This document shows, piece by piece, positions 6,415 to 25,086 of a stretch of DNA of 26,857 nucleotides; positions within the stretch are counted from its first letter, which is position 1, and the number at the start of each line of letters is the position of its first letter. The notes under the pieces were generated by a model. The model searched no databases. It was not told where the DNA came from and worked only from the letters and a program-made list of their open reading frames with translations. Made by a program: the position numbers and the translations under genes. The stretch is taken from UHGV virus genome UHGV-0196088. One strand, given 5' to 3'. The DNA is from a virus.

Positions 6415-9093
6415 TCAGTAGCCTCCTGCCATCACAGTCTGCCGCCGATCAAGGCGCGCGAGTTGCTTGTCGAGAGCGGGTGCGAGCTTGCCCACCAGCG
6501 TCCCATCCGACAACGTCACTGAAATATCCAAAGACCCGAGGATGCGTTTTGCTGTTGCATCGACGATGCTCGCGACATCCACACGCTCACTATCAGCACC
6601 GCCATTCGTATCGCGACTGATAGCTATGGGTTGTGGGGTGAGGTCAACGGCAGGTACCTGTAGATCCGCAACCGCCTCGATCGGGACGCTCAGCCCGTCT
6701 TCAAGGTCGGCGAAGGCGTCCATCGTGTCCCTAGCTAAACCAGTAGCGGCGGTGACGGCTTTGTTGCCGTCCGTGCGGATGGAGCCTGCGAGGCCTTCGA
6801 CAAGCATCTGTCCTGCCCACGCCATCTTGCGAGATGGTGAGTGGATACCGAAGAAGCCGGTGATCGAGTCCCAAATTCCGCTTGCCCAGTTCGAGACCCG
6901 ATTCCACAACCAGCCCGCCAAGCCTTGGATGCCATTCCACAGGCCGTAGACGAGGTTCTTACCCGCCTCCACCATCTGCCACACGCCCTGCCCAACAGCA
7001 GACACAATCCCAGAAATAATCGATGGGATTGCTGCGACGATTGTGGAAATGATCTGCGGCAGGTTTCGCACCAACGCGGTGAGGAGTTGGATTCCTGCTT
7101 GGACGAGTTGCGGGATAGCCCCACCAATCGCCGATACAATACTGGCGATAATCTGCGGGAGCGCGGCGACGATCGTCGTGATGATCTGCGGTAGCGCCCC
7201 AATCAACGCCGTCAACAACTGAATGCCTGCTTGGATCAGTTGTGGGATCGCACCCACCACGCCGCTGACGATCGCGGTAATAATCTGTGGGAGTGCTGCG
7301 ACGATTGCTGTGATGATCTGAGGCAGCGCCCCGATCAGAGCCGTCAAGAGTTGGATTCCTGCTTCGATGATTTGTGGAATCGCCCCGACGAGGAAGGTCA
7401 CTATGCCGGTGATGATCTGTGGGAGGGCTTCGATGATGATGGGAATTGATGCGATGAGTCCTTCGGTAAGTCCGGTGATGAGCTGCAACGCCGCATCAAG
7501 AAGCAACGGGAGGTTATCGACCAGGCCCTGCACTAAAGCCATGAGCATCTCCACCGCCGCAGGAACCAGTTCCGGTAGTGCTTCGCCGATACCAGAGACG
7601 AGGGTGGCGATGATCTGAATCGCCGCCTCCAACAAAGACGGCAACGTTTCGATGATTGCTTCTACTAAAGCGATGATCAGCGTCACGGCTGTTTCTGCTA
7701 CTTGTGGCAACACCTTGATAATGCCTTCAAGGAGCGCGGTCAAAATGCTCATGCCGGTCTCGACCACCATCGGTAGCTGCTCGGTAATAAATGCGAGAGC
7801 TTCCTGTAACACGGTGCCGAGGGTGTCAATCAGGGCAGGCGTGCCTCCTTCTTCGAACGCTGTCGTGAGTTCGTCGATCCAGCCGTTGACCATCGGCAAC
7901 ACCGAACCCGCCAACGCCTCAGAGACTCCGCCTGCGAGGAGGCCTTTGAGGTTTTCGATCCCGTCCTGCATTGTTGCGAGCTGGCCGCTAAAAGTCTTGG
8001 ATTGGGCGTCCATCGCCCCATAGAACCGGCCACCCTCGGCCGTGGCAGAAGCAAACGCGTCCGCAACCATGTCCGCAGAGATAGCTCCCTTGGCCATTTC
8101 CTCCTTGAGCTCACCAATGCTTTTGCCGGTCTTGCGGCTGATCTCTTCGAGCGGGTTGAATCCGGCGTTGATCATCTGCAGCAAGTCCTGACCCGTGAGC
8201 TTGCCGGTCGAGGACATTTGGGCGAAGGCGAGCGTGAGCGATTCCATCTTCACCGCATCTCCTTGGGAGATGTCGCCGATTTCGTTGAGGTGCTTTTTCG
8301 CATCCTCCAGGCTCATTCCGAAGCTCAGGAGGGTTTGCATGTTGCCCGCGAGGTCCTCCATACCAAACGGAGTCTTCGCCGCCTGGGCCTTCAAATCATT
8401 CACAAGCTTCTGAGCCTTGGCTTGGTCACCCAGCATCGTCGTAAAGGATGTGGTGTATTGCTCCATGCGGGCGTTGTACTCCACGCCTTCCTTCAACGCG
8501 CCTACCATGCCGCGACCGATCGAGGCGATCGCATGCCCGATACCTTTGACTCCGGCGATGATCGCTTCGGAGGCGAGGTTCGCTTTCAACACGTCACCGA
8601 AGATGCGGGTCTTGCCAGAAGTCGAGTCCATCTCGTCGCCGAGATCATCGACTGCACCCTCGAGTTTGCCCGCGTCCTTGGCGGCGTCTTTAGCATCGTC
8701 ACCGGCACCGTCTGCTTCGTCCCCGAAATCCGACAGGGCGTCATTATTCGATTTGAGTTCACTTTCGAGCCGGTTGAGCTCCGCACCCGCGTTATTAAGC
8801 TGGATTTGCCAGTTCTTCGTCCGGCTATCGTTCTCACCAAACGATGAGGCAGAGTTCTCCAGCGCGGCGCGCAGGGTCTCAATCTTCGACTTTTGAGCCT
8901 CGATCTCTTTGCCAAGCACTTGGTTACGGGCCGTGAGGGCTTCGGCGGACTTGTCGTTCTTATCAAACGAGGAGGCTACGAGCTTCATCTCACTGCCAAG
9001 CACTCGCATCTCACGGTTAATATCCGTGATCGCGCGCTTGAACTCCCGCTCACCCTCAAGCCCAATCTTCAAACCAAACGAACTGTCAGCCAT
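6415..9093 (-). CDS. Tape measure protein
   Basis: 892 aa. N-terminal coiled-coil-like region, long central hydrophobic repeat region (LPQIITAIVAALPQII...GAIPQLIQAGIQLLTALIGA), C-terminal GIHSPSR-containing part. Largest gene in the tail module. Confidence 0.9.
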   Translation of the reverse strand: MADSSFGLKIGLEGEREFKRAITDINREMRVLGSEMKLVASSFDKNDKSAEALTARNQVLGKEIEAQKSKIETLRAALENSASSFGENDSRTKNWQIQLNNAGAELNRLESELKSNNDALSDFGDEADGAGDDAKDAAKDAGKLEGAVDDLGDEMDSTSGKTRIFGDVLKANLASEAIIAGVKGIGHAIASIGRGMVGALKEGVEYNARMEQYTTSFTTMLGDQAKAQKLVNDLKAQAAKTPFGMEDLAGNMQTLLSFGMSLEDAKKHLNEIGDISQGDAVKMESLTLAFAQMSSTGKLTGQDLLQMINAGFNPLEEISRKTGKSIGELKEEMAKGAISADMVADAFASATAEGGRFYGAMDAQSKTFSGQLATMQDGIENLKGLLAGGVSEALAGSVLPMVNGWIDELTTAFEEGGTPALIDTLGTVLQEALAFITEQLPMVVETGMSILTALLEGIIKVLPQVAETAVTLIIALVEAIIETLPSLLEAAIQIIATLVSGIGEALPELVPAAVEMLMALVQGLVDNLPLLLDAALQLITGLTEGLIASIPIIIEALPQIITGIVTFLVGAIPQIIEAGIQLLTALIGALPQIITAIVAALPQIITAIVSGVVGAIPQLIQAGIQLLTALIGALPQIITTIVAALPQIIASIVSAIGGAIPQLVQAGIQLLTALVRNLPQIISTIVAAIPSIISGIVSAVGQGVWQMVEAGKNLVYGLWNGIQGLAGWLWNRVSNWASGIWDSITGFFGIHSPSRKMAWAGQMLVEGLAGSIRTDGNKAVTAATGLARDTMDAFADLEDGLSVPIEAVADLQVPAVDLTPQPIAISRDTNGGADSERVDVASIVDATAKRILGSLDISVTLSDGTLVGKLAPALDKQLARLDRRQTVMAGGY
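6980..7420 (-). repeat. In-frame tandem repeats within the tape measure gene
   Basis: DNA blocks of ~120 bp recur (gatgatctg(c/a)gg(t/c)agcgcccc...), matching the repeated LPQII/GAIPQL protein units. Boundaries are approximate. Confidence 0.6.
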
Positions 9094-14796: not shown

Positions 14797-16124
14797 ATCC
14801 TCCTCCTTACAGAAGATTCACTTGTAGATTCCACAGCCGGTTCAGGCTCCAGTTCGGGTTGGGCTGGTTCGTCGGCTTGGGTGGCGGCGTAAGCCCCCGC
14901 AAGACCGAGCGGGAGCATGTTCCCGTTTACCAGGTAGAGGTCGCCGCCAGCCTCGGCAGGGATCTTGTCGAGGTTTTCTAGCTCGCGGATATCGTTGGCG
15001 CTCATCCACCCGTTCTGGCGTGCCACCGCATACCCATCCATCCGTGACTTATAGTCACCTCGCAGGAGGCCTTCGAGGTTGAACTTCACGTAGATCTGCG
15101 GCTTCTCACGCGAGCTGAGCAGGGTTTTAGTGATGGCTTGTTCGAAGCGGATCACCCACGGGTCCAACGTGTACTTCACAAACTCCAGCGACTGCTGCTC
15201 AATATTGGAGAAGCTGGATTTTTCCAGGTCGCCAATCATGTGCGGCGGAATACGGAAGATTCGAGCAATTTCGTTGATCTGAAACTTCCTCGTCTCCAAA
15301 AACTGAGCTTGTTCGGGGCTGACGGAGATGGGCGTGTATTTCATGCCCTCTTCCAACACCGCGATCTTGTTGGAGTTCCTCGCGCCGCCGAACGTTGCCT
15401 GCCAGGACTCCCTAACTCTGGCGGGGTCTTTGATCGTGCCCGGATGCTCCAACACCCCACCAGGAGCAGCACCGTTAGCAAAAAACGATGCGCCGTAGTC
15501 TTCTGTTGCTTGGGCGAGGCCGATGGCGTTTTTCGCCATCGCAATCGGGCTATAACCAACCAGGCCGTCAAAGCCCAGGCCGGGAATATGGAGGACATCG
15601 CGCGCGGCCAACGTGACGGTCTCGTATCTTCCTGTTGGTTCGTCCCATGTGCGCTGATACTCGTAATACAAACGCCCGGCTTCGTCGCGTCCGACGGTCA
15701 TGCGGTTGGGCATCAACGGATACAGGCCGATGACCTCGTCGCGGCCGTTACGGATCACCTGAGCAAACGCATTACCCCAGAGCAGTAGGTGGGTCATCAG
15801 CGTTTCCCTAAAGACAAAGGATGTCATTTCAGGGTTCGGCTCATCATGCAACAACCTGTAGAGCGGATGGTCGAGCGCCTTCACCTTCGCCCCATCACTG
15901 CTCTGCCGGTAAACATGCAACGGCAAACCAGCGATTGCTTCAGCCAAAATCCGCACACACGAATACACGGCGCTCATCTGCATAGCGGACCGTTCCGTCA
16001 CCGGACGACCAGACGACGTCGCCCCAAAGAAGAAGCTATAACCAGTACCGATCGCATGATCTTCGGCGGTGCGGGTGGTGTCGCCGCGCAGCCAATTCAG
16101 GAAACCCATGCGGTGTCCTTTCAC
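14793..16124 (-). CDS. Portal protein (HK97-family type)
   Basis: 443 aa; N-terminal GFLNWLRG...SAVYSCVRILAEAIAGLPLHVY is typical of HK97-family portals; downstream of the large terminase. Confidence 0.9.
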   Translation of the reverse strand: MKGHRMGFLNWLRGDTTRTAEDHAIGTGYSFFFGATSSGRPVTERSAMQMSAVYSCVRILAEAIAGLPLHVYRQSSDGAKVKALDHPLYRLLHDEPNPEMTSFVFRETLMTHLLLWGNAFAQVIRNGRDEVIGLYPLMPNRMTVGRDEAGRLYYEYQRTWDEPTGRYETVTLAARDVLHIPGLGFDGLVGYSPIAMAKNAIGLAQATEDYGASFFANGAAPGGVLEHPGTIKDPARVRESWQATFGGARNSNKIAVLEEGMKYTPISVSPEQAQFLETRKFQINEIARIFRIPPHMIGDLEKSSFSNIEQQSLEFVKYTLDPWVIRFEQAITKTLLSSREKPQIYVKFNLEGLLRGDYKSRMDGYAVARQNGWMSANDIRELENLDKIPAEAGGDLYLVNGNMLPLGLAGAYAATQADEPAQPELEPEPAVESTSESSVRRRI

Positions 16125-16139
16125 ATGTAGAATTGGAAT

Positions 16140-16511
16140 ATGAAAGCGCCCTCAAAACAGTCGTGGGCACTGATGAGTGTCCTGCTAGTGGCATTTTGGT
16201 TGTTGCCGCTCATCTCCATGTGGATCAGCAGGCTGAGCGATCCCAACGCCAAGTGGTTCATCGCGTTGCTCTTCCTCGCGTTTCCACTACTCACCATCGT
16301 TTTGAGCGTTATCGATGGGGCACGCCACGGGTTCGGCTGGTGGTGGCTACTGGTCCCGTTCGCAGGGTTCTTGACCACACTGTTCGTGTACTACAACGAT
16401 TCAGCTCTCATCTACGGCGTCGCCTACTCGATCTTGGGACTGATCGGCACAGGCATCGGCGCGTTCATCCATGCGCGTACTCACAGCACGAGTAGGCCGC
16501 GTTCGTCATAA
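16140..16511 (+). CDS. Four-TM integral membrane protein, opposite-strand accessory gene
   Basis: 123-aa ORF with four clear hydrophobic helices. It occupies the gap between the TerL stop and the portal start and overlaps the TerL 3' end convergently by about 30 nt. A TAGAAT -10-like hexamer lies just upstream, implying a short or absent leader. Confidence 0.6.
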   Translation: MKAPSKQSWALMSVLLVAFWLLPLISMWISRLSDPNAKWFIALLFLAFPLLTIVLSVIDGARHGFGWWWLLVPFAGFLTTLFVYYNDSALIYGVAYSILGLIGTGIGAFIHARTHSTSRPRSS

Positions 16512-18112
16512 ACACTGCCGCTGACGTGCCCGCTGCCGTTTCGGATAGCGCGGTCAAGAGCCATGATGGTGGCGACCACGCCGTCAATCTTCTCCGTGGA
16601 CTTTTGCTTGTCGGGTTTGATGTTTCCTGCTGGGTCGGTGCGAACGTGAATGTTGTCTACCATCCATGACAGGACTGGGTGACCGCCATGGGCGAGCTTA
16701 CCTTCGAGTGCGAGCTTCATCAGCTCCTTCGACGGCGGGCTCATATCCTTAAAGCCCTGCCCGAAGGGAACGACGGTGAAACCGAGGCCTTCGAGGTTTT
16801 GACTCATTTGCACAGCACCCCACCGGTCGAACGCAATCTCACGAATATCAAACCGTTCACCTAGCTGTTCAATGAAGGCTTCAATCGCTCCGTAATGAAC
16901 GACGTTGCCCTCAGTCGTCTCTAGGTAGCCTTTTTGCTGCCACAGGTCGTAGGGCACATGGTCACGGGCTACTCGCAGTTTGAGGTTGTCTTGCGGTATC
17001 CAGAACCATGGCGCAATCACATACCGCTCGTCACCGGTTTCGGGTGGGAAGACGAGCACGAACGCGGTGATATCCGTCGTCGAGGCAAGATCGAGCCCGC
17101 CGTAACACACCCGCCCCTCCAAATCTGACAGGTCGACGGGTGCGTTGTTTTGGTTCCACACGTGCATGGGCATCCACCGCACGCTTTGTTTGACCCATTG
17201 GTTGAGGCGAAGTTGTCGGAACGTGTTCTCCTCAGCCGGATTCTGCCTGGCCGAGGTGCAGGCTTGGCGGACTTTCTCAATCGGAACCGTGATCCCCAAG
17301 CTCGGATTAGCCTTATGCCACACGTCCTCGTCGGTCCAGTCATCCTCTCTGTCAGCACCGTAGATGACCGGGTAGAACGTCGGGTCATGTTTCTTGCCTG
17401 CGAGGATGTCTTCAGCTTTCTCATGCTGCTCATAACAAATCGAATGCGTGTCGGTACCGGCCGTCGTGATGAGGAAGTACAACGGCTGCGTGCGAGCATC
17501 ACCCGAACCCTTGGTCATCACGTCGAACAAGGCACGGCCCGGTTGGGTGTGGAGTTCGTCGAAGACGACACCAGAAATGTTGAACCCGTGCTTCGAATAC
17601 GCCTCAGCGCTCAACACTTGATAGAAGGAGTTGGTGGGCTTGTAAATAATCCGCTTCTGCGAGGCAAGAATCTTGACACGCTTGGACAACGCTGGACTCA
17701 TGCGGATCATGTCCGCCGCGACCTCAAACACAATCGAGGCTTGCTGGCGGTCTGCCGCACACCCATACACTTCAGCGCGTTCTTCACCATCCCCGCAGGT
17801 GAGCAGGAGCGCGACCGCTGCGGCAAGCTCCGACTTGCCCATCTTCTTCGGAATCTCGACATAGGCGGTGGTGAACTGGCGGTAACCGTCCGCTTTGACG
17901 GTGCCGAACAGGTCACGGATGATCTGCTCTTGCCAATCAATGAGCTGGAACGGTTTGCCTGACCAGCGGCCCTTCGTGTGCTTGAGCGCTTGAATGAAGG
18001 CCACCGCATAGTCGGCTTTGCGCTTGTCATAGCGTGAGCCGTCAGCCATGAACCGGGTTGGCGTATAGGTTTCTAGTTGACGCATCGTGTCCCACCTCCT
18101 CTCCAGTGGCAT
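16481..18112 (-). CDS. Terminase large subunit
   Basis: ORF-track coordinates; the probable true start is the ATG near 18085 (MRQLETYTPTRF...), preceded by GGAGAGGAGGTG. Contains a TKGRWSGKPFQLIDWQ motif, an ATPase Walker-A-like KKMGKSELAA, and a C-terminal nuclease domain. Confidence 0.9.
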   Translation of the reverse strand: MPLERRWDTMRQLETYTPTRFMADGSRYDKRKADYAVAFIQALKHTKGRWSGKPFQLIDWQEQIIRDLFGTVKADGYRQFTTAYVEIPKKMGKSELAAAVALLLTCGDGEERAEVYGCAADRQQASIVFEVAADMIRMSPALSKRVKILASQKRIIYKPTNSFYQVLSAEAYSKHGFNISGVVFDELHTQPGRALFDVMTKGSGDARTQPLYFLITTAGTDTHSICYEQHEKAEDILAGKKHDPTFYPVIYGADREDDWTDEDVWHKANPSLGITVPIEKVRQACTSARQNPAEENTFRQLRLNQWVKQSVRWMPMHVWNQNNAPVDLSDLEGRVCYGGLDLASTTDITAFVLVFPPETGDERYVIAPWFWIPQDNLKLRVARDHVPYDLWQQKGYLETTEGNVVHYGAIEAFIEQLGERFDIREIAFDRWGAVQMSQNLEGLGFTVVPFGQGFKDMSPPSKELMKLALEGKLAHGGHPVLSWMVDNIHVRTDPAGNIKPDKQKSTEKIDGVVATIMALDRAIRNGSGHVSGSVYDERGLLVL

Positions 18113-18194: not shown

Positions 18195-18389
18195 TTAGAT
18201 CAGGGCGTCGAGCGCGGCATATTCAGCGCGACGCTGGTCGAGCTGGTGGGCGATGATGGAGGAGCGGAAGCCGTTCTTCTCCCGTCCCAGCTTGTTTTCT
18301 AGGGCGGTGATCTCGGCCTTGCGACGTTTCATCACCTCGATCGTGTCGCCGCCTTGGATTGCTTGCTTGTCGCGTTCGAAACTGTTCAT
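18195..18389 (-). CDS. Small hypothetical protein (64 aa, charged, predicted helical)
   Basis: The ORF track extends to 18518, but the ATG near 18389 (MNSFERDKQ...) is 8 nt downstream of AAGGAG. Preceded by leader element copy A. Confidence 0.5.
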   Translation of the reverse strand: MNSFERDKQAIQGGDTIEVMKRRKAEITALENKLGREKNGFRSSIIAHQLDQRRAEYAALDALI

Positions 18390-18395
18390 GACCAT

Positions 18396-18490
18396 CTCTC
18401 CTTCTCTTGTTTGGTCATGTACATACAGCCATAGACCCGCGACTATATCCAGTCGTTTTCGGCGTATTTTCAAGGGAAAATAGCGATGGT
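18396..18490 (-). promoter_or_regulatory. Conserved leader element, copy A (candidate promoter/operator plus RBS)
   Basis: Core CTTGTTTGGTCATGTACATACAGCCATA (plus strand) with flanking conservation (TATCCAGTCGT, GAAAATAG); about 95 bp near-identical to copy B. Contains the palindrome ATGTACAT and ends in the RBS of the downstream ORF. Confidence 0.6.
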
Positions 18491-18606: not shown

Positions 18607-18879
18607 TTAGAGAGCGTTGATCATGCCGATCGCCCAGGCAGTTGCGTGGCCTTCGTCGGTGAAGGCTTCATCGGATTCGGCAGCGAGCATCACTGGGGCG
18701 TTCTTACCTTGGCCTAGGATCTGGAAGATCGCTACGAAATGCTCGTAGGTGCCGAGGGAGTCGTTCCAGATGCGGTTGGTGGCGATCAGGTGAGTGCCGT
18801 AGCGCATCGCGTGTCCCAGGATCTTGTAGTGCTTGGCAACCGCTGTGGTGGTCTTCAAGGCTGTAAGTTCGTTGTTCAT
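18607..18879 (-). CDS. Small hypothetical protein (90 aa)
   Basis: ATG preceded by AAGGAG at ~7-nt spacing, directly after leader element copy B. No recognisable motif. Confidence 0.55.
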   Translation of the reverse strand: MNNELTALKTTTAVAKHYKILGHAMRYGTHLIATNRIWNDSLGTYEHFVAIFQILGQGKNAPVMLAAESDEAFTDEGHATAWAIGMINAL

Positions 18880-18885
18880 GACCTT

Positions 18886-18985
18886 GCTCCTTCTCTTGTT
18901 TGATCATGTACATACAGCCATACGTCGCCGCGCATATCCAGTCGTCTTCCGCGTATTCACGAGGAAAATAGAGATTCTGGTCTCT
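18886..18985 (-). promoter_or_regulatory. Conserved leader element, copy B
   Basis: Same core as copy A with one mismatch (CTTGTTTGATCATGTACATACAGCCATA) and the same flanking blocks. Confidence 0.6.
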
Positions 18986-18999
18986 CGCTTCTGCTCGGG

Positions 19000-19647
19000 T
19001 TATTCGGCCGGGTGTGGCGCGGTTTTCCACGCCGCATTACCTTCCAAATTCGCAAGTAACACCCGGCGGGCGGTCTTGTATCCCTCGCCAAGCATTCCCA
19101 GGCGTAGGAGCCAGCAGCGCATCGCATACTTATCATTCCCTGGTTCAGGTGGTTTCGGTGAGATGCGGGTGGAGGTCTTGGCTTGCTCGATCATCAGCTG
19201 GATAAGCACGCTAGCCACCTCAATCACCTCCGCCTCAGGAAGCTGATCGAACCAAGCAAACTCAACCGTTCCTTCCACCTCGTCCATCTTCATGGGCGTG
19301 GCCGGAATATCGAGTGCCTTGGCGATGAGTGCTCCCTTGGCGGCGAGCAGGGCTTCGAGCTTCGCTGCTGTGGCCTCGTCCCACCCGGTCGTGGGGAATG
19401 CGAGCGTCAGCCCGTACTCCTCGCCCGTGGGCGCAAAACCAGCCGTAATCGCCGCCTCGGTGAGGGAGTCGGTGTCGATGTCCTCTGGGAGGTGGAGCAC
19501 CCAATCCCGATCTAGCCGGGCTTGCCCGATCAGGTAGTCGAAAGAAGGCGTACCCGCATACACGGGGTTCACGCCGAGATGGGCGGCGAGGGCTTCGGCG
19601 AGTTTCTTGCGCCCTCTCTTGTTCGGGGAGAAAGGAATCCGGGTCAT
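19000..19647 (-). CDS. Hypothetical protein (about 215 aa), translationally coupled to the upstream acidic ORF
   Basis: Likely start MTRIPFSPNKRGRKK... at the ATG near 19647, preceded by GGAGGTG inside the 3' end of the upstream ORF. Basic N-terminus, acidic central region. No recognisable family. Confidence 0.55.
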   Translation of the reverse strand: MTRIPFSPNKRGRKKLAEALAAHLGVNPVYAGTPSFDYLIGQARLDRDWVLHLPEDIDTDSLTEAAITAGFAPTGEEYGLTLAFPTTGWDEATAAKLEALLAAKGALIAKALDIPATPMKMDEVEGTVEFAWFDQLPEAEVIEVASVLIQLMIEQAKTSTRISPKPPEPGNDKYAMRCWLLRLGMLGEGYKTARRVLLANLEGNAAWKTAPHPAE

Positions 19648-19829
19648 GCTGCCACCTCCTGGTCGAACCAAGATGCGATGAAACCGAGATAGTCATCTGG
19701 GTAGTCGTTGATGCAGGTTGCGGCTAGCTCGAAGTCGTGTTCGCAGGCGTACCCGAATGCTTCAGCACGGTTCCACAGGTCGACGCCTGCTTCTAGCATT
19801 TCGGTCAGTTCAATATGTAGTTCGCTCAT
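19644..19829 (-). CDS. Small strongly acidic protein (about 61 aa)
   Basis: MSELHIELTEMLEAGVDLWNRAEAFGYACEHDFELAATCINDYPDDYLGFIASWFDQEVAA: about 14 Asp/Glu against one Arg. GGAGG RBS; the same ATGGTCATGA start context as the ORF at 18389; leader element copy C upstream. Confidence 0.55.
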   Translation of the reverse strand: MSELHIELTEMLEAGVDLWNRAEAFGYACEHDFELAATCINDYPDDYLGFIASWFDQEVAA

Positions 19830-19866
19830 GACCATCCTCCAATTCGTGTTTCCCCCAGTTAGGGAT

Positions 19867-19925
19867 CTTGTTTGGTCATGTACATACAGCCATAGGTGCG
19901 CCCGCTTATCCAGTCGTATTGGCTG
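19867..19925 (-). promoter_or_regulatory. Conserved leader element, copy C
   Basis: Identical 28-bp core (CTTGTTTGGTCATGTACATACAGCCATA) plus the TATCCAGTCGT block; located just 3' of the C5-MTase stop and about 38 nt upstream of the acidic ORF start. Confidence 0.55.
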
Positions 19926-21417
19926 CTTTTTGTAGCCTGTTTAGGACGTATTTCACTACTGGTAATGCCACCCCATTTCCCCACAGTTTGTACTGTGCTG
20001 AATCAGTTGGCGCGGTTTTCAGCCAAGTAGTGATTTGGCTGCGAGTTTTCGGTTTCACGCCCCGTCCTAGGTTCCAGTTCTTCCACACGCCCTCCCAGTA
20101 CCTGATTTCGTCTTCGTCTGGGTCGAGGTTTGTGAGGTTGTCACACCAATAGTCCGGGAAGCCTTGTAGACGAGAACATTCGAGGGGTGTGAGTTTGCGT
20201 GGGCGAAGCATCGTATTAGCGACAATAGGTGGCTGGTGTGAATCACTTGCCAAAAGTGCACCAGCAACATTTGTAGTTGCCCTCGTGAAATGATCAGATT
20301 TCGAAGAAGCATAGATCGGTTCGAGAATGACCATTCCGCCTTGATTGCATGCGGGATTACCGCCAGCTAAATCAAGAGTTTTTGCCACAGTGGTTTCGTA
20401 ACCGCATTCACCACCATATTTACGATTGTCGTGGACGGAATTTATACCGTATACAGGTTGGTCGAGTAGGAGTGGAACATTTCCACCTCCTGTTCCCATT
20501 CGTGAAGTTAAGGTTTGACTTGTTACCTGGTCGCCAATTTCGATGCGCGAATCATTGGGATGGTAATCAAGCATCACCTGCATGCTAGGTTTAAATAAGA
20601 CTTGGTCAGCACCAGTTCCTAATGTGCCTGAAAGGTCATGCTGAATCAACGGCCCTTTACCACCGCCTGGCTTACCGGCACGCATACGAAGAGTTAACGC
20701 CCCGCACCGGTTGCCTGTAGTGCTTGGGCTAATTGCTCGGGCAGGGTTTTGTTTTTCTTCTTTGCTCGCGTCAGGATTCCTTGTGCTGCTTTGGGACTCA
20801 AATAGAATCTCGGGTGCGGATTGTCCTGCAAAATCTGCGACAAGGAAGATACGACGACGACGTTGGGGCACTCCGAAAAATTGAGCATCGAGCACTCGCC
20901 ATGCAAGTGATGCCCCATCTGCCAAGACGTATCCGCTGGTTGCCCAGCTGGTTTCAGGAACAGGAATGCGTGGCGTTTGCTGGCAGGACACCTCGATAAA
21001 CGCTTGCAAGACCGCGGCAAAGTCGGCCCCGTGGTTTGAGGAGAATACGCCCGGCACGTTTTCCCACACAGCATATCTTGGGTAGACACCATGAGTTGCT
21101 TGCCTCATTTCTTCAATAATCCGCACAGCTTGGTAAAACAGTGAGGAGCGAGACCCATCAATCCCGCTCCGCTTACCTGCGATAGATAAATCCTGACAAG
21201 GTGAACCAAACGTGATCACATCCACCGGCTGTAACCGGCCACCATCTAACAAATTAATATCGCCAACATGGCGAACTTCAGGCAGATTTTTCCTCGTTAC
21301 CCGGATAGCGAAGGGGTCTACCTCAGATGCCCACATCGGTTTGATACCAACCATTTTGGCAGCTAAAGGGAAACCGCCCGAACCATCAAACAAGGAACCC
21401 AACGTCAAAGCACTCAC
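19906..21417 (-). CDS. DNA (cytosine-5)-methyltransferase
   Basis: 503 aa with motif I (LFDGSGG), motif IV (GSPCQDLSIAG), motif VI (ENVPG), motif VIII (QRRRRIFLVA), a large variable target-recognition region, and a C-terminal GFPDYW motif. GTG start overlaps the stop of the upstream MTase (GTGA). Confidence 0.95.
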   Translation of the reverse strand: MSALTLGSLFDGSGGFPLAAKMVGIKPMWASEVDPFAIRVTRKNLPEVRHVGDINLLDGGRLQPVDVITFGSPCQDLSIAGKRSGIDGSRSSLFYQAVRIIEEMRQATHGVYPRYAVWENVPGVFSSNHGADFAAVLQAFIEVSCQQTPRIPVPETSWATSGYVLADGASLAWRVLDAQFFGVPQRRRRIFLVADFAGQSAPEILFESQSSTRNPDASKEEKQNPARAISPSTTGNRCGALTLRMRAGKPGGGKGPLIQHDLSGTLGTGADQVLFKPSMQVMLDYHPNDSRIEIGDQVTSQTLTSRMGTGGGNVPLLLDQPVYGINSVHDNRKYGGECGYETTVAKTLDLAGGNPACNQGGMVILEPIYASSKSDHFTRATTNVAGALLASDSHQPPIVANTMLRPRKLTPLECSRLQGFPDYWCDNLTNLDPDEDEIRYWEGVWKNWNLGRGVKPKTRSQITTWLKTAPTDSAQYKLWGNGVALPVVKYVLNRLQKAANTTG

Positions 21418-22715
21418 GATTCACCCCGATCAACATCCCGCACCAAATCCAAATACGCGTATTCCTTGCCCTCACGCAAACAGGTGATACCTGCCGCGTC
21501 CCCGGTGTGTTCGGCATACCGGCGCAAAATCACGGAGGCGTATTTCTCGTCGAGCTCCATCGCATAACAGATGCGGTCGCTGGCCTCGCACGCCATCAAG
21601 GTTGAGCCTGAGCCTGCGAACGTGTCGAGCACGATCGCGTTCGCCTGAGTGGAGTTCCCAATCGGATAAGCCAACAAATCCAGCGGTTTAGAGGTGGGGT
21701 GGTCGGCGTTGCGGCGTGGCTTAGCGAAATTCCAGATCGTGGTCTGCTTACGATCCGCATACCAGCGATGCTTACCCGTCTTCACCCATCCAAAGAGCAC
21801 CGGCTCGTGCTGCCACTGATACGGGGAACGTCCCAATACGAGGGAATCTTTGACCCAGATGCAACATCCGGAGAGGTAGAAGCCAGCGTCTTGGAAGGCT
21901 CTGCGGAAGTTTAAGCCTTCAGTGTCAGCGTGAAAAACGTAGGCGGACGCGCCCTTCTCACACACGCCCGCCATATTCGTAAACGCTGCGAGAAGGAAGT
22001 CGTAGAACTTATCGCCATCCATCTTGTCGTTCTTAATCGACAAACCCGACCCTGATTCGAAGGCGACGTTATATGGCGGATCGGTCAACACAAGATTCGC
22101 ACGCTTACCATCCATCAACAACTCGACGTCCTCGGCGCTGGTGGCGTCGCCACAGACAAGTCGGTGGCGGCCGACTGTCCACACATCCCCACGCTCCACG
22201 AAAGTAGCAGCTTCTAACGCGGCGGTGAGGTCGAAATCATCATCCTCCACATCACCCTCATCCAATGAGCCGATAAGCTGCGCGATCTCAGCATCGTCAA
22301 AACCGGTCAGTTCAGCATCGAAATCCGAAGAGTCAAGGTCAGCGATGAGGAGGGCAAGTTTGTCGTTGTCCCATTCGCCACTGATCTTGTTCATCGCAAC
22401 GTTCAGCGCCTTTTCGCGCATTTCGTCAAGTTCGACGACGACGCAGTCCACGGTTTCTTGTCCCAAGTGTTTGAGAACGGACAATCGCTGATGACCAGAG
22501 ATGACGGTGTTGTCATTCGCCGCGTTAACCACCACTAGCTCGACGTAGCCGAACTCAGTCAGGGAGCGCTTAAGCTTTTCAAACTCAGCATCGCCAGGCT
22601 TGAGTTCCTTACGCGGGTTATATGCGGCAGGTTTCAGTTCAGCTATCGGTAGCTGCTTGATTATCATGGACATAGGTGGAGCCTTTCTTGAATAAGAAGC
22701 TGGCTGATGCCCCAA
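21414..22715 (-). CDS. ParB-like nuclease domain fused to an N6-adenine (DPPY-type, beta-class) DNA methyltransferase
   Basis: N-terminal ParB-like region (IAELKPAAYNPRK...ISGHQRL), then DPPY (LVLTDPPYNV) followed by FAGSGST. The likely true start is MSMIIKQ near 22673, which would reduce the overlap with the HNH gene. Confidence 0.9.
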   Translation of the reverse strand: MGHQPASYSRKAPPMSMIIKQLPIAELKPAAYNPRKELKPGDAEFEKLKRSLTEFGYVELVVVNAANDNTVISGHQRLSVLKHLGQETVDCVVVELDEMREKALNVAMNKISGEWDNDKLALLIADLDSSDFDAELTGFDDAEIAQLIGSLDEGDVEDDDFDLTAALEAATFVERGDVWTVGRHRLVCGDATSAEDVELLMDGKRANLVLTDPPYNVAFESGSGLSIKNDKMDGDKFYDFLLAAFTNMAGVCEKGASAYVFHADTEGLNFRRAFQDAGFYLSGCCIWVKDSLVLGRSPYQWQHEPVLFGWVKTGKHRWYADRKQTTIWNFAKPRRNADHPTSKPLDLLAYPIGNSTQANAIVLDTFAGSGSTLMACEASDRICYAMELDEKYASVILRRYAEHTGDAAGITCLREGKEYAYLDLVRDVDRGES

Positions 22716-23206
22716 TCGCCAATAAGTTCGTAGACACGTTTCGTTTCTGCTTCAACCTTCGGGTGGCACGAGCGGCAAAGAACTGCGAGATTATTGCCCC
22801 AGCGCTCGCCTCCACATTTGGTTGGGATGATGTGGTGCACAATGAGATTGCACCTGCTTCCACACCGTCTGCAGATCCCGCGTTTGCGAAGCTTTTGAGA
22901 GAGCTGCTGCCAGTGATAGTCATAGGGACCATACGTGCGCATCGCCTGAGCGTTTTGCCTCAAGACGTTAGTTAGTCGCTGTCTTTTCGAATCGGAGTAT
23001 TCACGCCATTTGCAAGATGTGTGCGCACCGATTTTCGCTTTTGTTTCGGGCGAATGATAGTTCTCACCAAGAGCCTCCTTGCGTCGTCTGAGGCCTGCCG
23101 AAACTTTCTTTCTAAACTCAGGATCTTTGTTCTTCTCAATGAGGTCTTTGCGGCTCTTTTGCCATTCATTTTGACAAGGCACCGAACAAAAGAATTGAGA
23201 AGGCAC
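22664..23206 (-). CDS. HNH endonuclease
   Basis: C-terminal HNH/zinc motif (CRRCGSRCNLIVHHIIPTKCGGERWGNNLAVLCRSCH) and a basic N-terminal region. The gene is visibly lower in G+C than its neighbours. The start is uncertain (GTG at 23206 or an internal ATG). Confidence 0.8.
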   Translation of the reverse strand: MPSQFFCSVPCQNEWQKSRKDLIEKNKDPEFRKKVSAGLRRRKEALGENYHSPETKAKIGAHTSCKWREYSDSKRQRLTNVLRQNAQAMRTYGPYDYHWQQLSQKLRKRGICRRCGSRCNLIVHHIIPTKCGGERWGNNLAVLCRSCHPKVEAETKRVYELIGDWGISQLLIQERLHLCP

Positions 23207-23261: not shown

Positions 23262-24440
23262 TCAACCTTCATGCCTTGTAATCGCTTTCTTTAGCGCGTC
23301 GACGTGAGCGAACGAGTTTTCCCAATGCAGACCTGTATGACCGAAGTGCCCATAGGTTGAATACTGTGTAAAGCTAGGCTTGCGAAGGTTCAAGGCATCG
23401 ATGATTGCTCCAGGGCGCAGCGAGAATACTTCGCGTGCTGCCTCGGTCAGGATCTCGTCGGAGTATTCACCACTGCCGAGGGTGTCAACAGTGAAGGCGA
23501 CTGGGTCAGCCTTCCCAATCGCATAAGAAATGCTTACTTGGCACTCGATGGCCAACCGTGCGTCGACGATCGTTTTCGCGATCAGGCGCGCCATATAGGC
23601 ACCCGAACGATCCACTTTCGAGGCGTCCTTGCCTGAGAACGCACCACCACCATGGAGCGCGAGACCGCCGTAAGTATCAACCATCAACTTGCGACCCGTC
23701 AGACCCGTGTCCGCCTTCGGCCCACCCACCGTAAACAAGCCTGAGGGATTCACCAGAATCTCGGTGTCAGCGCTAATCGGCAGGTACAGCTTACAAGCGG
23801 GTGCGACGATCAGTGTTTTGACCTCAGCTGCAAGCTCATCTAGATCCTTGATCTTCTCGTGTTGGATCGACACCACCACGGTCTCAATCGCCAGCGGTTG
23901 TCCGGCGGCGTCGTAGCGAACCGTCACCTGCGCCTTACCATCGGACTTGATACCGGTGATCGTGCCTTGCTTGCGGGCATTGTCGAGCCGGGCGCAAATC
24001 TCATGAGAGAGCACAAGCGGCAGCGGCAAACGCTCCGGAGTCTCACGAGTGGCATAACCGTAAACAGTGCCTTGATCGCCAGCACCCTGCAAAGCGAATT
24101 CGGTGTCATCCCCAAAGCGTGCCTCTAAGGACTTGGAGACTCCGGCATTGATATCTGGGGATTGGCGGCGTGTCCAGACGAAGACGAGGAACTTCCACGG
24201 CACATAACCCGCCTCCATCAACGCGTAACGCACCGACTCACGAATGCGCGGACGAACCTTCGAAGTGATCTCGCCAGTGACGATGATCCGATGCCCGCTA
24301 GCCATCACTTCTACTGCGACGCGGGCAGCAGGATCCTCGTAGAGGATATCGTCAAGGATCGTGTCAGCGATCAGGTCGCAGAGCTTATCGGGATGGCCGA
24401 CACACACGGCCTCAGCAGTCTTCGTAACAGACATACACAC
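23262..24440 (-). CDS. metK: S-adenosylmethionine synthetase (methionine adenosyltransferase)
   Basis: MetK signature motifs by eye: GHPDKLCD near the N-terminus, GAGDQG, DTYGG, GGGAFSGKDASKVDRSGAY, and a YAIG C-terminal region. The probable start is the ATG two codons in (MSVTKTAEAV...). Confidence 0.95.
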   Translation of the reverse strand: MCMSVTKTAEAVCVGHPDKLCDLIADTILDDILYEDPAARVAVEVMASGHRIIVTGEITSKVRPRIRESVRYALMEAGYVPWKFLVFVWTRRQSPDINAGVSKSLEARFGDDTEFALQGAGDQGTVYGYATRETPERLPLPLVLSHEICARLDNARKQGTITGIKSDGKAQVTVRYDAAGQPLAIETVVVSIQHEKIKDLDELAAEVKTLIVAPACKLYLPISADTEILVNPSGLFTVGGPKADTGLTGRKLMVDTYGGLALHGGGAFSGKDASKVDRSGAYMARLIAKTIVDARLAIECQVSISYAIGKADPVAFTVDTLGSGEYSDEILTEAAREVFSLRPGAIIDALNLRKPSFTQYSTYGHFGHTGLHWENSFAHVDALKKAITRHEG

Positions 24441-24513: not shown

Positions 24514-25086
24514 TTAGGAGCGTGCTTTGAGCAGTTGCTCCATCACGTCATCACCCGGAGCCGTGCCCGAGTAGTCGGTGGTGCAGGTGGCGCGGACGAT
24601 CTCGTAAATCTCGTACCAGTACACGTTCGCTTGCTTCCCGAACGACTGGGACATGGCGACGAAGGGGGACGCGATTGCAGCCCCTGTGGTTGGGTGCTTG
24701 CCAAGTAGGCCGAACTTGGAGATCGCCTGCTCACACTGCACATAGCGCGCGAACGCCTGCGCATAGGCTTCGATCAGACGTGGGGCGACGAACTGGGAAC
24801 AGCCACGTTGATCGAGCCATTGCCACGTTTCTCGGTAGACCAGGTCAGCACCGAGTGGTTTGCCATCCCGCTGAACCTCAGACAAATACTCGCTAGGTTC
24901 TGGCATGGTCTCCCCGGCGAGCACTGCGCCCTCACCCACATCGGAGCCGCTGAAATCAAACACGTCCTCAAGCGGATCATGCAACCTAGTCGCAGGGCTG
25001 CCTTTGGCAACCTTCTCACTCAACGCATCCGGCTTCGCACCCGCACGCACCCGACGTCCACCCCTGTTAGTACCATCCTTAGCCAT
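24514..25086 (-). CDS. Terminase small subunit (P27-family-like)
   Basis: 190 aa; basic N-terminus (MAKDGTNRGGRRVRAGAKP), central ...LIEAYAQAFARYVQCEQAISKFGLLGKHPTTGAAIASPFVAM... resembling P27-type small terminases. GGAGG RBS. First late gene after an AT-rich promoter region. Confidence 0.6.
   Translation of the reverse strand: MAKDGTNRGGRRVRAGAKPDALSEKVAKGSPATRLHDPLEDVFDFSGSDVGEGAVLAGETMPEPSEYLSEVQRDGKPLGADLVYRETWQWLDQRGCSQFVAPRLIEAYAQAFARYVQCEQAISKFGLLGKHPTTGAAIASPFVAMSQSFGKQANVYWYEIYEIVRATCTTDYSGTAPGDDVMEQLLKARS

Follow-up and report, generated by a model that had tools for sequence, protein, structure and literature searches.

A strongly acidic DUF5049-like protein coupled to a catalytically degenerate amidoligase homolog in the terminase island of virus UHGV-0196088

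The stretch of viral DNA analyzed here, from virus genome UHGV-0196088 (26,857 nucleotides; hereafter the window), carries on its minus strand two overlapping genes for a strongly acidic protein of 61 residues and, immediately downstream, a protein of 215 residues (Table 1). Judged by sequence comparison, the 215-residue protein is a full-length homolog of the Amidoligase_2 family (PF12224; GS/GCS2-like carboxylate-amine ligases) that appears to have kept the core of the fold and has lost the catalytic residues, and the 61-residue protein is a folded, helical, lineage-specific and far more acidic divergent relative of DUF5049. We hold both identifications with high confidence, and they supersede the statement of an earlier note, made from the letters of the window alone, that neither protein has an assignable motif. 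The pseudo-amidoligase, DUF4314 and DUF5049 are a conserved set in the terS-terL hot-spot of HK97-like prophages, located after the genes for MetK, a ParB-methylase and Dcm. The window contains a variant of this set, in which the hyper-acidic DUF5049-like gene has moved upstream of the pseudo-amidoligase gene and become coupled to it, and DUF4314 has been lost. Our favored reading, which as a whole we consider possible but short of probable, is that the pair is a non-enzymatic two-protein accessory of a phage island for DNA modification and restriction evasion.

The Coupled Gene Pair

Both open reading frames (ORFs) are real genes, as the 61-residue protein has conserved acidic relatives, the 215-residue protein has hundreds of homologs, and structural models were obtained for the two. 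The earlier note had placed the stop codon of the small gene 2 nt from the start of the larger one; the coupling holds, and the arrangement is tighter than was claimed, with the TGA stop and the ATG start overlapping as ATGA. As had also been noted, the ribosome binding site of the larger gene lies within the small gene. The first ATG of the small ORF would produce a protein of 63 residues (19644..19835), but we prefer the start at 19829 because it is preceded by GGAGG at a spacing of 6 nt and yields a length that matches the 61-residue homologs in the databases. Our recount of the composition agreed with the acidity first described: the 61-residue protein has 14 Asp and Glu residues, a single Arg and no Lys, giving a net charge of -13 and a pI of 4.05, and it is the most acidic protein of the window (-21 per 100 residues, against -7.9 for the runner-up). 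In GC content the pair matches the remainder of the phage, which gives no indication of a recent foreign origin. A megablast search of the region against 50,697 deposited phage records matched only 54 bp and found no close relative; the closest relatives of the region are prophages of Actinotignum urinale, Actinobaculum massiliense, Mobiluncus, Winkia, and Varibaculum.

The 215-Residue Protein Is a Degenerate Amidoligase Homolog

The 215-residue protein (structural model with a predicted local distance difference test, pLDDT, of 87) had no match in Pfam (E ≤ 1), NCBIfam or PADLOC, while in PHROGs it matched phrog_2443, "amidoligase enzyme," with an E-value of 1.4e-42. A word-indexed search identified 295 relatives, for which the source names, where given, are "virulence protein," "Phage-associated protein" and "hypothetical protein," and at least 572 stretches of species-representative genomes carry a relative (572 confirmed among the first 600 candidates). 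Members from cultured phages, labeled "virulence(-related) protein," are found in Streptococcus phages Javan191, Javan105, Javan108 and Javan112, Erysipelothrix phage phi1605 and Gardnerella phage vB_Gva_AB1. These proteins have 24-36% identity to the 215-residue protein over more than 90% of its length, and their genes are likewise located after methylases and before terL; they differ from the window in having DUF4314/DUF5049-type small genes downstream and no acidic gene coupled upstream. Their name reflects annotation only.

Several lines of comparison connect this family to Amidoligase_2 genes of prophages, with which it has in common full-length homology, the same genomic island and a C-terminal motif. 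Some prophages carry both types of gene, and jackhmmer cross-recruited them. By BLASTP, residues 124-209 of the 215-residue protein have 42% identity (E 1e-16) to the C-terminus of the amidoligase of prophage locus L084, and the identity of the C-terminal motif between dead and active paralogs is 42-47%. A profile alignment by hhalign of 43 family members with nine prophage amidoligases gave a probability of 99.84% (E 3e-30) over 203 columns. The 215-residue protein covers positions 164-417 of the PHROG 2443 profile and the active enzyme positions 142-418. The differences are equally clear: relative to Amidoligase_2, the 215-residue protein is ~90 residues shorter, falls below the threshold of the Pfam model, and has had its catalytic residues replaced and a segment of ~70 residues deleted.

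The residue losses were read from a joint alignment of the 43 pseudo-amidoligase family members with the active enzymes (amidoligase numbering). Among the 43 invariant polar positions of the active enzymes only R28, N269, R275, and R292 are fully kept, with R60, W62, and R306 kept in part. Across all 43 members the glutamates of the GxExE motif are replaced (E20 by N, R, G, or P and E22 by T, N, or S), E79 is deleted and the histidines of the HxH motif are replaced (H116 by T and H118 by A or V); in the ExR motif, E218 is variable and R220 is changed to P or A. In addition, a catalytic insert of ~70 residues has been lost, with deletion of segment 157-213 and of R194, H197, Y198, S201, R202, Y203, N207, and H209. 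As every candidate catalytic Glu, His, and Arg, presumed to bind metal and ATP in the active enzymes, is thereby replaced or deleted, we consider the 215-residue protein to be a pseudoenzyme, and ATP-dependent ligase activity is predicted to be absent. The 27 columns that are invariant within the family itself (43 sequences) contain no Asp, Glu, or His. What has been kept is a highly conserved, basic C-terminal helical hairpin (NDKYAMRCWLLRLG..G..YK..RR.LL.NL.GN.AW).

A sequence search of solved structures returned nothing significant for the 215-residue family, DUF5049, the active amidoligases or DUF4314, the sole near-match being that of DUF4314 to a designed DPBB protein (E 0.034). We also observed two acidic additions in the pseudo-amidoligases of Bacillota (L084 8001-8879; P0094-P0120) that are missing from the Actinomycetaceae proteins: an insert of low complexity and an extra tail at the C-terminus (...GDPELAEALADELLIQQVNASFGEE..).

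The 61-Residue Protein Is an Acidic Relative of DUF5049

The 61-residue protein was modeled by AlphaFold2 as a compact fold of four or five helices (pLDDT 92). It had no match in Pfam, NCBIfam or PADLOC and only an insignificant one in PHROGs (phrog_5421, E 0.23), and no match was found by tblastn against the 50,697 phage records. A word-indexed search recovered only three near-identical clusters, one of them labeled, evidently arbitrarily, "cell division protein." When 1.84 billion representatives were scanned exhaustively with HMMER, 13 matches resulted, 11 of them genuine small proteins with 41-57% identity. Taken together, the conserved relatives have 39-57% identity to the 61-residue protein, are all acidic (net charge -6 to -15), and are limited to prophages of Actinomycetaceae. 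Their alignment (A2) is conserved at S2, L4, E10, G15, A28, W54, and F55, and also at E3, H5, E7, A14, L35, and Y47; the conserved residues are mostly hydrophobic or aromatic, save for an acidic N-terminal motif (SELHxE).

The relationship to DUF5049 (PF16468; PHROG 8677) emerged when the hidden Markov model of alignment A2 was compared with the six-frame ORFs of the fetched loci, as it matched small ORFs located 3' of the pseudo-amidoligase in ~25 Bacillota loci (E 8e-4 to 0.1). As far as inspected (27 ORFs), all matches outside the acidic family itself were of the DUF5049 type, and representatives of the Bacillota ORFs matched DUF5049 in Pfam with E-values of about 1e-30. Aligned directly by hhalign, the acidic family and DUF5049 gave a probability of 90-91% (90.3%, E 1.4e-6, over 49 columns); the score of 33.3 compares with 9.4 ± 1.7 (maximum 13.8) for 60 column shuffles and 10.6 for the reversed alignment. 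Both are helical proteins of ~60 residues encoded in the terS-terL island, and they share G, A, L, Y, and F-I positions. Conversely, the Pfam model of DUF5049 did not match the window protein or its Mobiluncus/Actinobaculum homolog at E ≤ 1, and the invariant R-x2-G-x-T-N-M-F-D motif of DUF5049 is absent: the acidic family has E-A-G-V-D-L-W-N/D, with V-D-L-W-D/N in place of T-N-M-F-D, and retains only the G and, in part, the aromatic-D. It is because of the failure of the Pfam model and the absence of T-N-M-F-D that we call the 61-residue protein DUF5049-like and not a member. The two also differ in charge (net -2 to -7 in DUF5049, -13 here) and in gene position, the 61-residue gene being upstream of, and coupled to, the pseudo-amidoligase gene.

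A small acidic protein encoded beside a glutamine synthetase-like partner brings to mind the Pup protein and its PafA/Dop partners of Actinobacteria. Membership in that system was rejected, as a well-folded structure is predicted for the small protein, its C-terminus is VAA and not GGQ or GGE, and the GS-like partner here is without catalytic residues; the resemblance is an analogy only.

Conservation of the Set Across Related Loci

To place the pair in context, we surveyed the neighborhoods of the 80 best-matching genome loci, 67 of which had at least 2.5 kb of downstream sequence and 67 at least 2.5 kb of upstream sequence. The upstream neighbors were a ParB-methylase (55/67), terS (54/67), and MetK (41/67). 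Downstream, DUF4314 was the next gene in 56 of the 67 loci (84%), DUF5049 was present in 38, and in 53 TerL was encoded at a distance of no more than 6 kb. An active Amidoligase_2 was found in 16 of these loci and GGACT in 15, both after the pseudo-amidoligase and DUF4314; the remaining 51, the window included, have the pseudo-amidoligase without any active ligase. In 15 loci that do have terL, neither small protein was found. The acidic type was seen only in Actinomycetaceae loci, and in none of the 59 loci with both flanks did it occur together with canonical DUF5049, a mutual exclusion that fits the two being equivalents. Fusions were found between the pseudo-amidoligase and DUF4314 (P0053) and between DUF4314 and DUF5049 (L019 and L028), and L096 has the acidic gene coupled to a pseudo-amidoligase that is truncated at the N-terminus and itself fused to DUF4314. 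Compared with the Actinotignum prophage L001, its closest relative and one of the 56 loci with DUF4314 as the next gene, the window is missing DUF4314 (window 18880-19002, L001 10651-10839) and has an extra cassette, composed of a leader and an ORF of 66 residues (18195-18395), before terL.

Homologs of the pseudo-amidoligase also occur away from this setting. A solitary subtype of 221 residues matched at least 7,800 protein clusters, and its members are found in small satellite-like elements with HTH_17, D5_N primase, capsid and Tn916-Xis genes. In several loci the solitary homolog directly follows defense or restriction-modification (R-M) genes: Abi_2 and a type IIG R-M enzyme (L088-L095), a type I HsdR (L046), HsdS (L062), an HsdM-like methylase and HsdS (L039), or AbiEii (L081). 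Locus L058 likewise has a solitary homolog after variable defense cargo.

Possible Functions of the Pair

According to the favored reading, the acidic protein would bind the pseudo-amidoligase, most simply via the conserved basic residues and C-terminal hairpin of the latter. The conserved basic residues of the 215-residue protein are R13, K104, R161, R177, R182, K191, and R194. The resulting complex would serve the purpose of the island, that is, the passage of modified phage DNA through host restriction; its target might be a host nuclease, which it would bind and block, or it might assist or regulate the neighboring methylases, and it would not act as a ligase. We propose a complex on three grounds: the translational coupling of the two genes, the fusions that connect the three families, and a conserved basic surface that faces an extremely acidic partner. 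In our estimation the arguments for and against complex formation are about evenly balanced, and a role of the pair in restriction evasion or DNA modification is doubtful to a somewhat greater degree than the reading as a whole. The earlier note had suggested an anti-restriction role from the position of the pair next to methyltransferases and behind a leader element. Both neighbors were confirmed, by Pfam and by the alignment of the repeat family, respectively, and the comparative context makes such a role plausible as far as sequences can indicate it. The likeness to known proteins that such a role could have suggested did not materialize, however, as structure prediction and structure-based searches revealed no fold similarity of either protein to any known DNA mimic or anti-defense protein.

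Other observations likewise weigh against the favored reading. Neither protein is similar, in the family libraries any more than in the structure searches, to characterized anti-restriction, anti-CRISPR or DNA-mimic proteins. We infer both the complex and its function indirectly, and as mobile elements cluster defense and modification genes anyway, adjacency is weak evidence. Factors needed early are not usually encoded in the late/packaging region, where the island is located. The absence of DUF4314 from the window indicates that the set is not obligatory, and the acidic gene of L097-L099, with Nmad4 on one side and DUF6900/terL on the other, is uncoupled from the pseudo-amidoligase. Finally, canonical DUF5049 is often immediately before terL, even where an amidoligase and GGACT have been inserted after DUF4314 (L043, L055, L059, L061, L063, and L064), a position that suggests a link with terL or with the island's end and could point to a role in packaging instead.

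Three alternatives, each of which we consider improbable, deserve discussion. The first is that the 61-residue protein acts alone as a DNA-mimic inhibitor of a restriction enzyme or another DNA-binding defense protein, in the manner of T7 Ocr, ArdA or phi29 p56, with the 215-residue protein as a second, independent anti-defense factor. Like those mimics, the 61-residue protein is small, has an extreme negative charge and is encoded beside restriction-evasion genes, here after two methylases. Its net charge of -13 is matched by the acidity kept throughout its family, its modeled fold is compact and helical, and known DNA mimics include very small acidic dimers. The negative structure searches described above apply to this alternative as well.

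The second, to which we assign a similarly low probability, is that the set has a role in packaging, with DUF5049-type proteins working with the large terminase and the pseudo-amidoligase being a scaffold or regulator in that process. The confinement of the whole set between terS and terL is consistent with this, as are the frequent abutment of DUF5049 on terL in the six loci just listed and the proximity of the acidic protein to terL in L097. However, most HK97-like phages package their DNA without these genes, and the set is variable, given the 15 terL loci with neither small protein and the loss of DUF4314 in the window. Moreover, pseudo-amidoligase homologs exist without a neighboring terminase, beside R-M or Abi cargo in satellite-like elements, and the acidic gene of the window is at the end of the island far from terL.

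The third is that the pair is what remains, or the regulatory part, of a modification system of the gamma-glutamyl type (Amidoligase_2 and GGACT), the enzymes of which were lost here, leaving the pair vestigial or repurposed. The dead paralog of such a system would offer the active ligase its substrate, which could be a phage protein, a small molecule or a DNA base. Pairs of an enzyme and a dead paralog are a common regulatory arrangement, the two paralogs have the same C-terminal motif (42-47% identity), and in a minority of loci (16 and 15 of 67, respectively; e.g., L084) the pseudo-amidoligase and DUF4314 come before an active amidoligase and GGACT. Against this, 51 of the 67 loci, the window among them, have no active ligase. 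That the pseudo-amidoligase is nevertheless strongly conserved (27 invariant columns in 43 sequences) means that it must have a ligase-independent function.

The arrangement found here has a precedent in a study of Clostridium clostridioforme prophages, where two PHROG-2443 genes flank one ORF and are followed by a gamma-glutamyl cyclotransferase (PMC11318856); in the same study an "amidoligase enzyme" gene is beside a type I R-M system. Work on thymidine hypermodification noted uncharacterized genes with amidoligase domains in phage DNA-modification clusters (PMC8989533). Our literature search found no paper mentioning DUF5049 or DUF4314, none tying amidoligase to anti-defense, and for Nmad4 only an unrelated plant paper; a paper on polyvalent proteins was without mention of these domains.

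Least probable of all is that the pair serves as cargo for lysogenic conversion or superinfection exclusion, which the prophage would express via the leader to the benefit of the host and not of the phage's own infection. In favor of this are the conserved and possibly promoter-like leader of each cassette, the solitary homologs beside defense cargo and the historical annotation "virulence(-related) protein." Against it are the lack of a PADLOC match to known defense systems for either protein, the absence of any sigma-70 consensus match or other sign of a promoter in the leader, neighbors (orphan methylases and MetK) that protect phage DNA rather than the host, and the absence of a toxin- or effector-like domain in either protein.

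A broader version of the favored reading, which we think unlikely, is that the pseudo-amidoligase and its small partners (DUF5049 or its acidic variant, and DUF4314) are a new and extremely widespread non-enzymatic class of restriction evasion that travels with phage and satellite methylases. One form of it would have the module neutralize modification-dependent (type IV) nucleases, to which the phage would otherwise be exposed through its heavy self-methylation by the adjacent ParB-methylase, Dcm and MetK; the dead ligase fold would then have been co-opted as a scaffold for binding, with the acidic protein as a nucleic acid-like bait or a regulator. If true, a pseudoenzyme scaffold with an acidic partner would constitute a new mechanistic class for anti-defense biology; if not, the pair is one more variant of a common, uncharacterized phage accessory module. 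Both families are already in the databases as uncharacterized and misleadingly named entries; the labels of the 215-residue family, "virulence protein" and "amidoligase enzyme," are each misleading. The recurrence of a dead enzyme after DNA methylases or R-M cargo, together with dedicated small partners, makes it a concrete target for anti-restriction screens in Gram-positive phages of the gut and urogenital tract.

The terS-terL Island of the Window and Its Leader

The features of the island are listed in Table 1. The gene for TerL was identified by jackhmmer, with the TerL of L084 (annotated by Pfam as TerL_ATPase/TerL_nuclease) as the seed of the profile, and its position is that of the Pfam-annotated TerL of L001. 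It is followed on the minus strand by genes for the portal, a ClpP-like protease and late head and tail proteins. The 66-residue ORF had nothing significant in four family libraries (best match Pfam Asp_Glu_race_2, E 0.06), and an 85-residue ORF between terL and portal (16121-16378, minus strand) had no Pfam match. Streptococcus phage Javan191 has a "homing endonuclease" between its two methylase genes, a similar place to that of the HNH gene in the window.

Table 1. Features of the gene pair and of the surrounding terS-terL island in the window.
Feature	Coordinates	Strand	Basis or remark
Small acidic ORF, 61 residues	19644..19829	minus	ORF list, composition, start-site reading
215-residue ORF	19000..19647	minus	PHROG 2443 member, catalytically degenerate Amidoligase_2 paralog
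ATGA stop/start overlap of the two ORFs	19644..19647	minus	Sequence read directly; indicates translational coupling
AGGAGG Shine-Dalgarno of 215-residue ORF	19655..19660	minus	Within small ORF, 7 nt before ATG
GGAGG Shine-Dalgarno of 61-residue ORF	19836..19840	minus	6 nt before ATG at 19829
Small terminase subunit terS (Terminase_4)	24514..25086	minus	Pfam; upstream island boundary
S-adenosylmethionine synthetase MetK	23262..24440	minus	Pfam
HNH endonuclease gene, between MetK and ParB-methylase	22664-23206	minus	
ParB_N + N6/N4 DNA methyltransferase	21414..22715	minus	Pfam
C5 cytosine DNA methyltransferase (Dcm), directly upstream of pair	19906..21417	minus	Pfam PF00145, E 7.9e-47
Leader copy 3, in front of pair: GNCTGGATA-N12-TATGGCTGTATGTACATGACCAAACAAG	19859..19940	minus	Repeat family, alignment
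Leader copy 2, in front of Nmad4 gene	18887..18968	minus	Repeat family, alignment
Nmad4 (PF18756), next cassette of island	18607..18879	minus	Pfam, E 2.8e-22
Leader copy 1, in front of 66-residue ORF	18398..18479	minus	Repeat family, alignment
66-residue basic ORF	18195-18395	minus	No family match
Large terminase subunit terL	16481..18112	minus	Downstream island boundary

The leader is a repeat of ~82 nt present in three copies, each directly before a small-gene cassette. It is composed of two boxes, GNCTGGATA and TATGGCTGTATGTACATGAyCrAACAAG, separated by a variable GC-rich spacer of 12 nt and followed by a Shine-Dalgarno sequence, and its 19-mer core recurs unchanged in five further Actinomycetaceae prophages (L001-L007). 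The leader, which marks cassette junctions, is probably a promoter/operator specific to the phage with a conserved 5' untranslated region. A structured RNA was considered and rejected (RNAalifold -1.35 kcal/mol with no covariation, and no Rfam match at E ≤ 1), as was a sigma-70 promoter, to whose consensus the leader has no match. A 13-mer resembling the leader upstream of the amidoligase gene in the Bacillota locus L024 was dismissed, its frequency being about that expected by chance. In phage vB_Gva_AB1 (L086) a small protein annotated as "RNA polymerase sigma-70" is encoded at 2174-2602, just upstream of HNH and terS; such a phage-encoded sigma factor or late activator is a candidate for the recognition of leader-type elements.

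Two ORFs on the minus strand of the late region contain tandem repeats: the ORF at 627-1613 has three in-frame copies of 153 nt at 637-1095, and the ORF at 6415-9093 has three in-frame copies of 132 nt, with sub-repeats of 33 nt, at 7016-7632.

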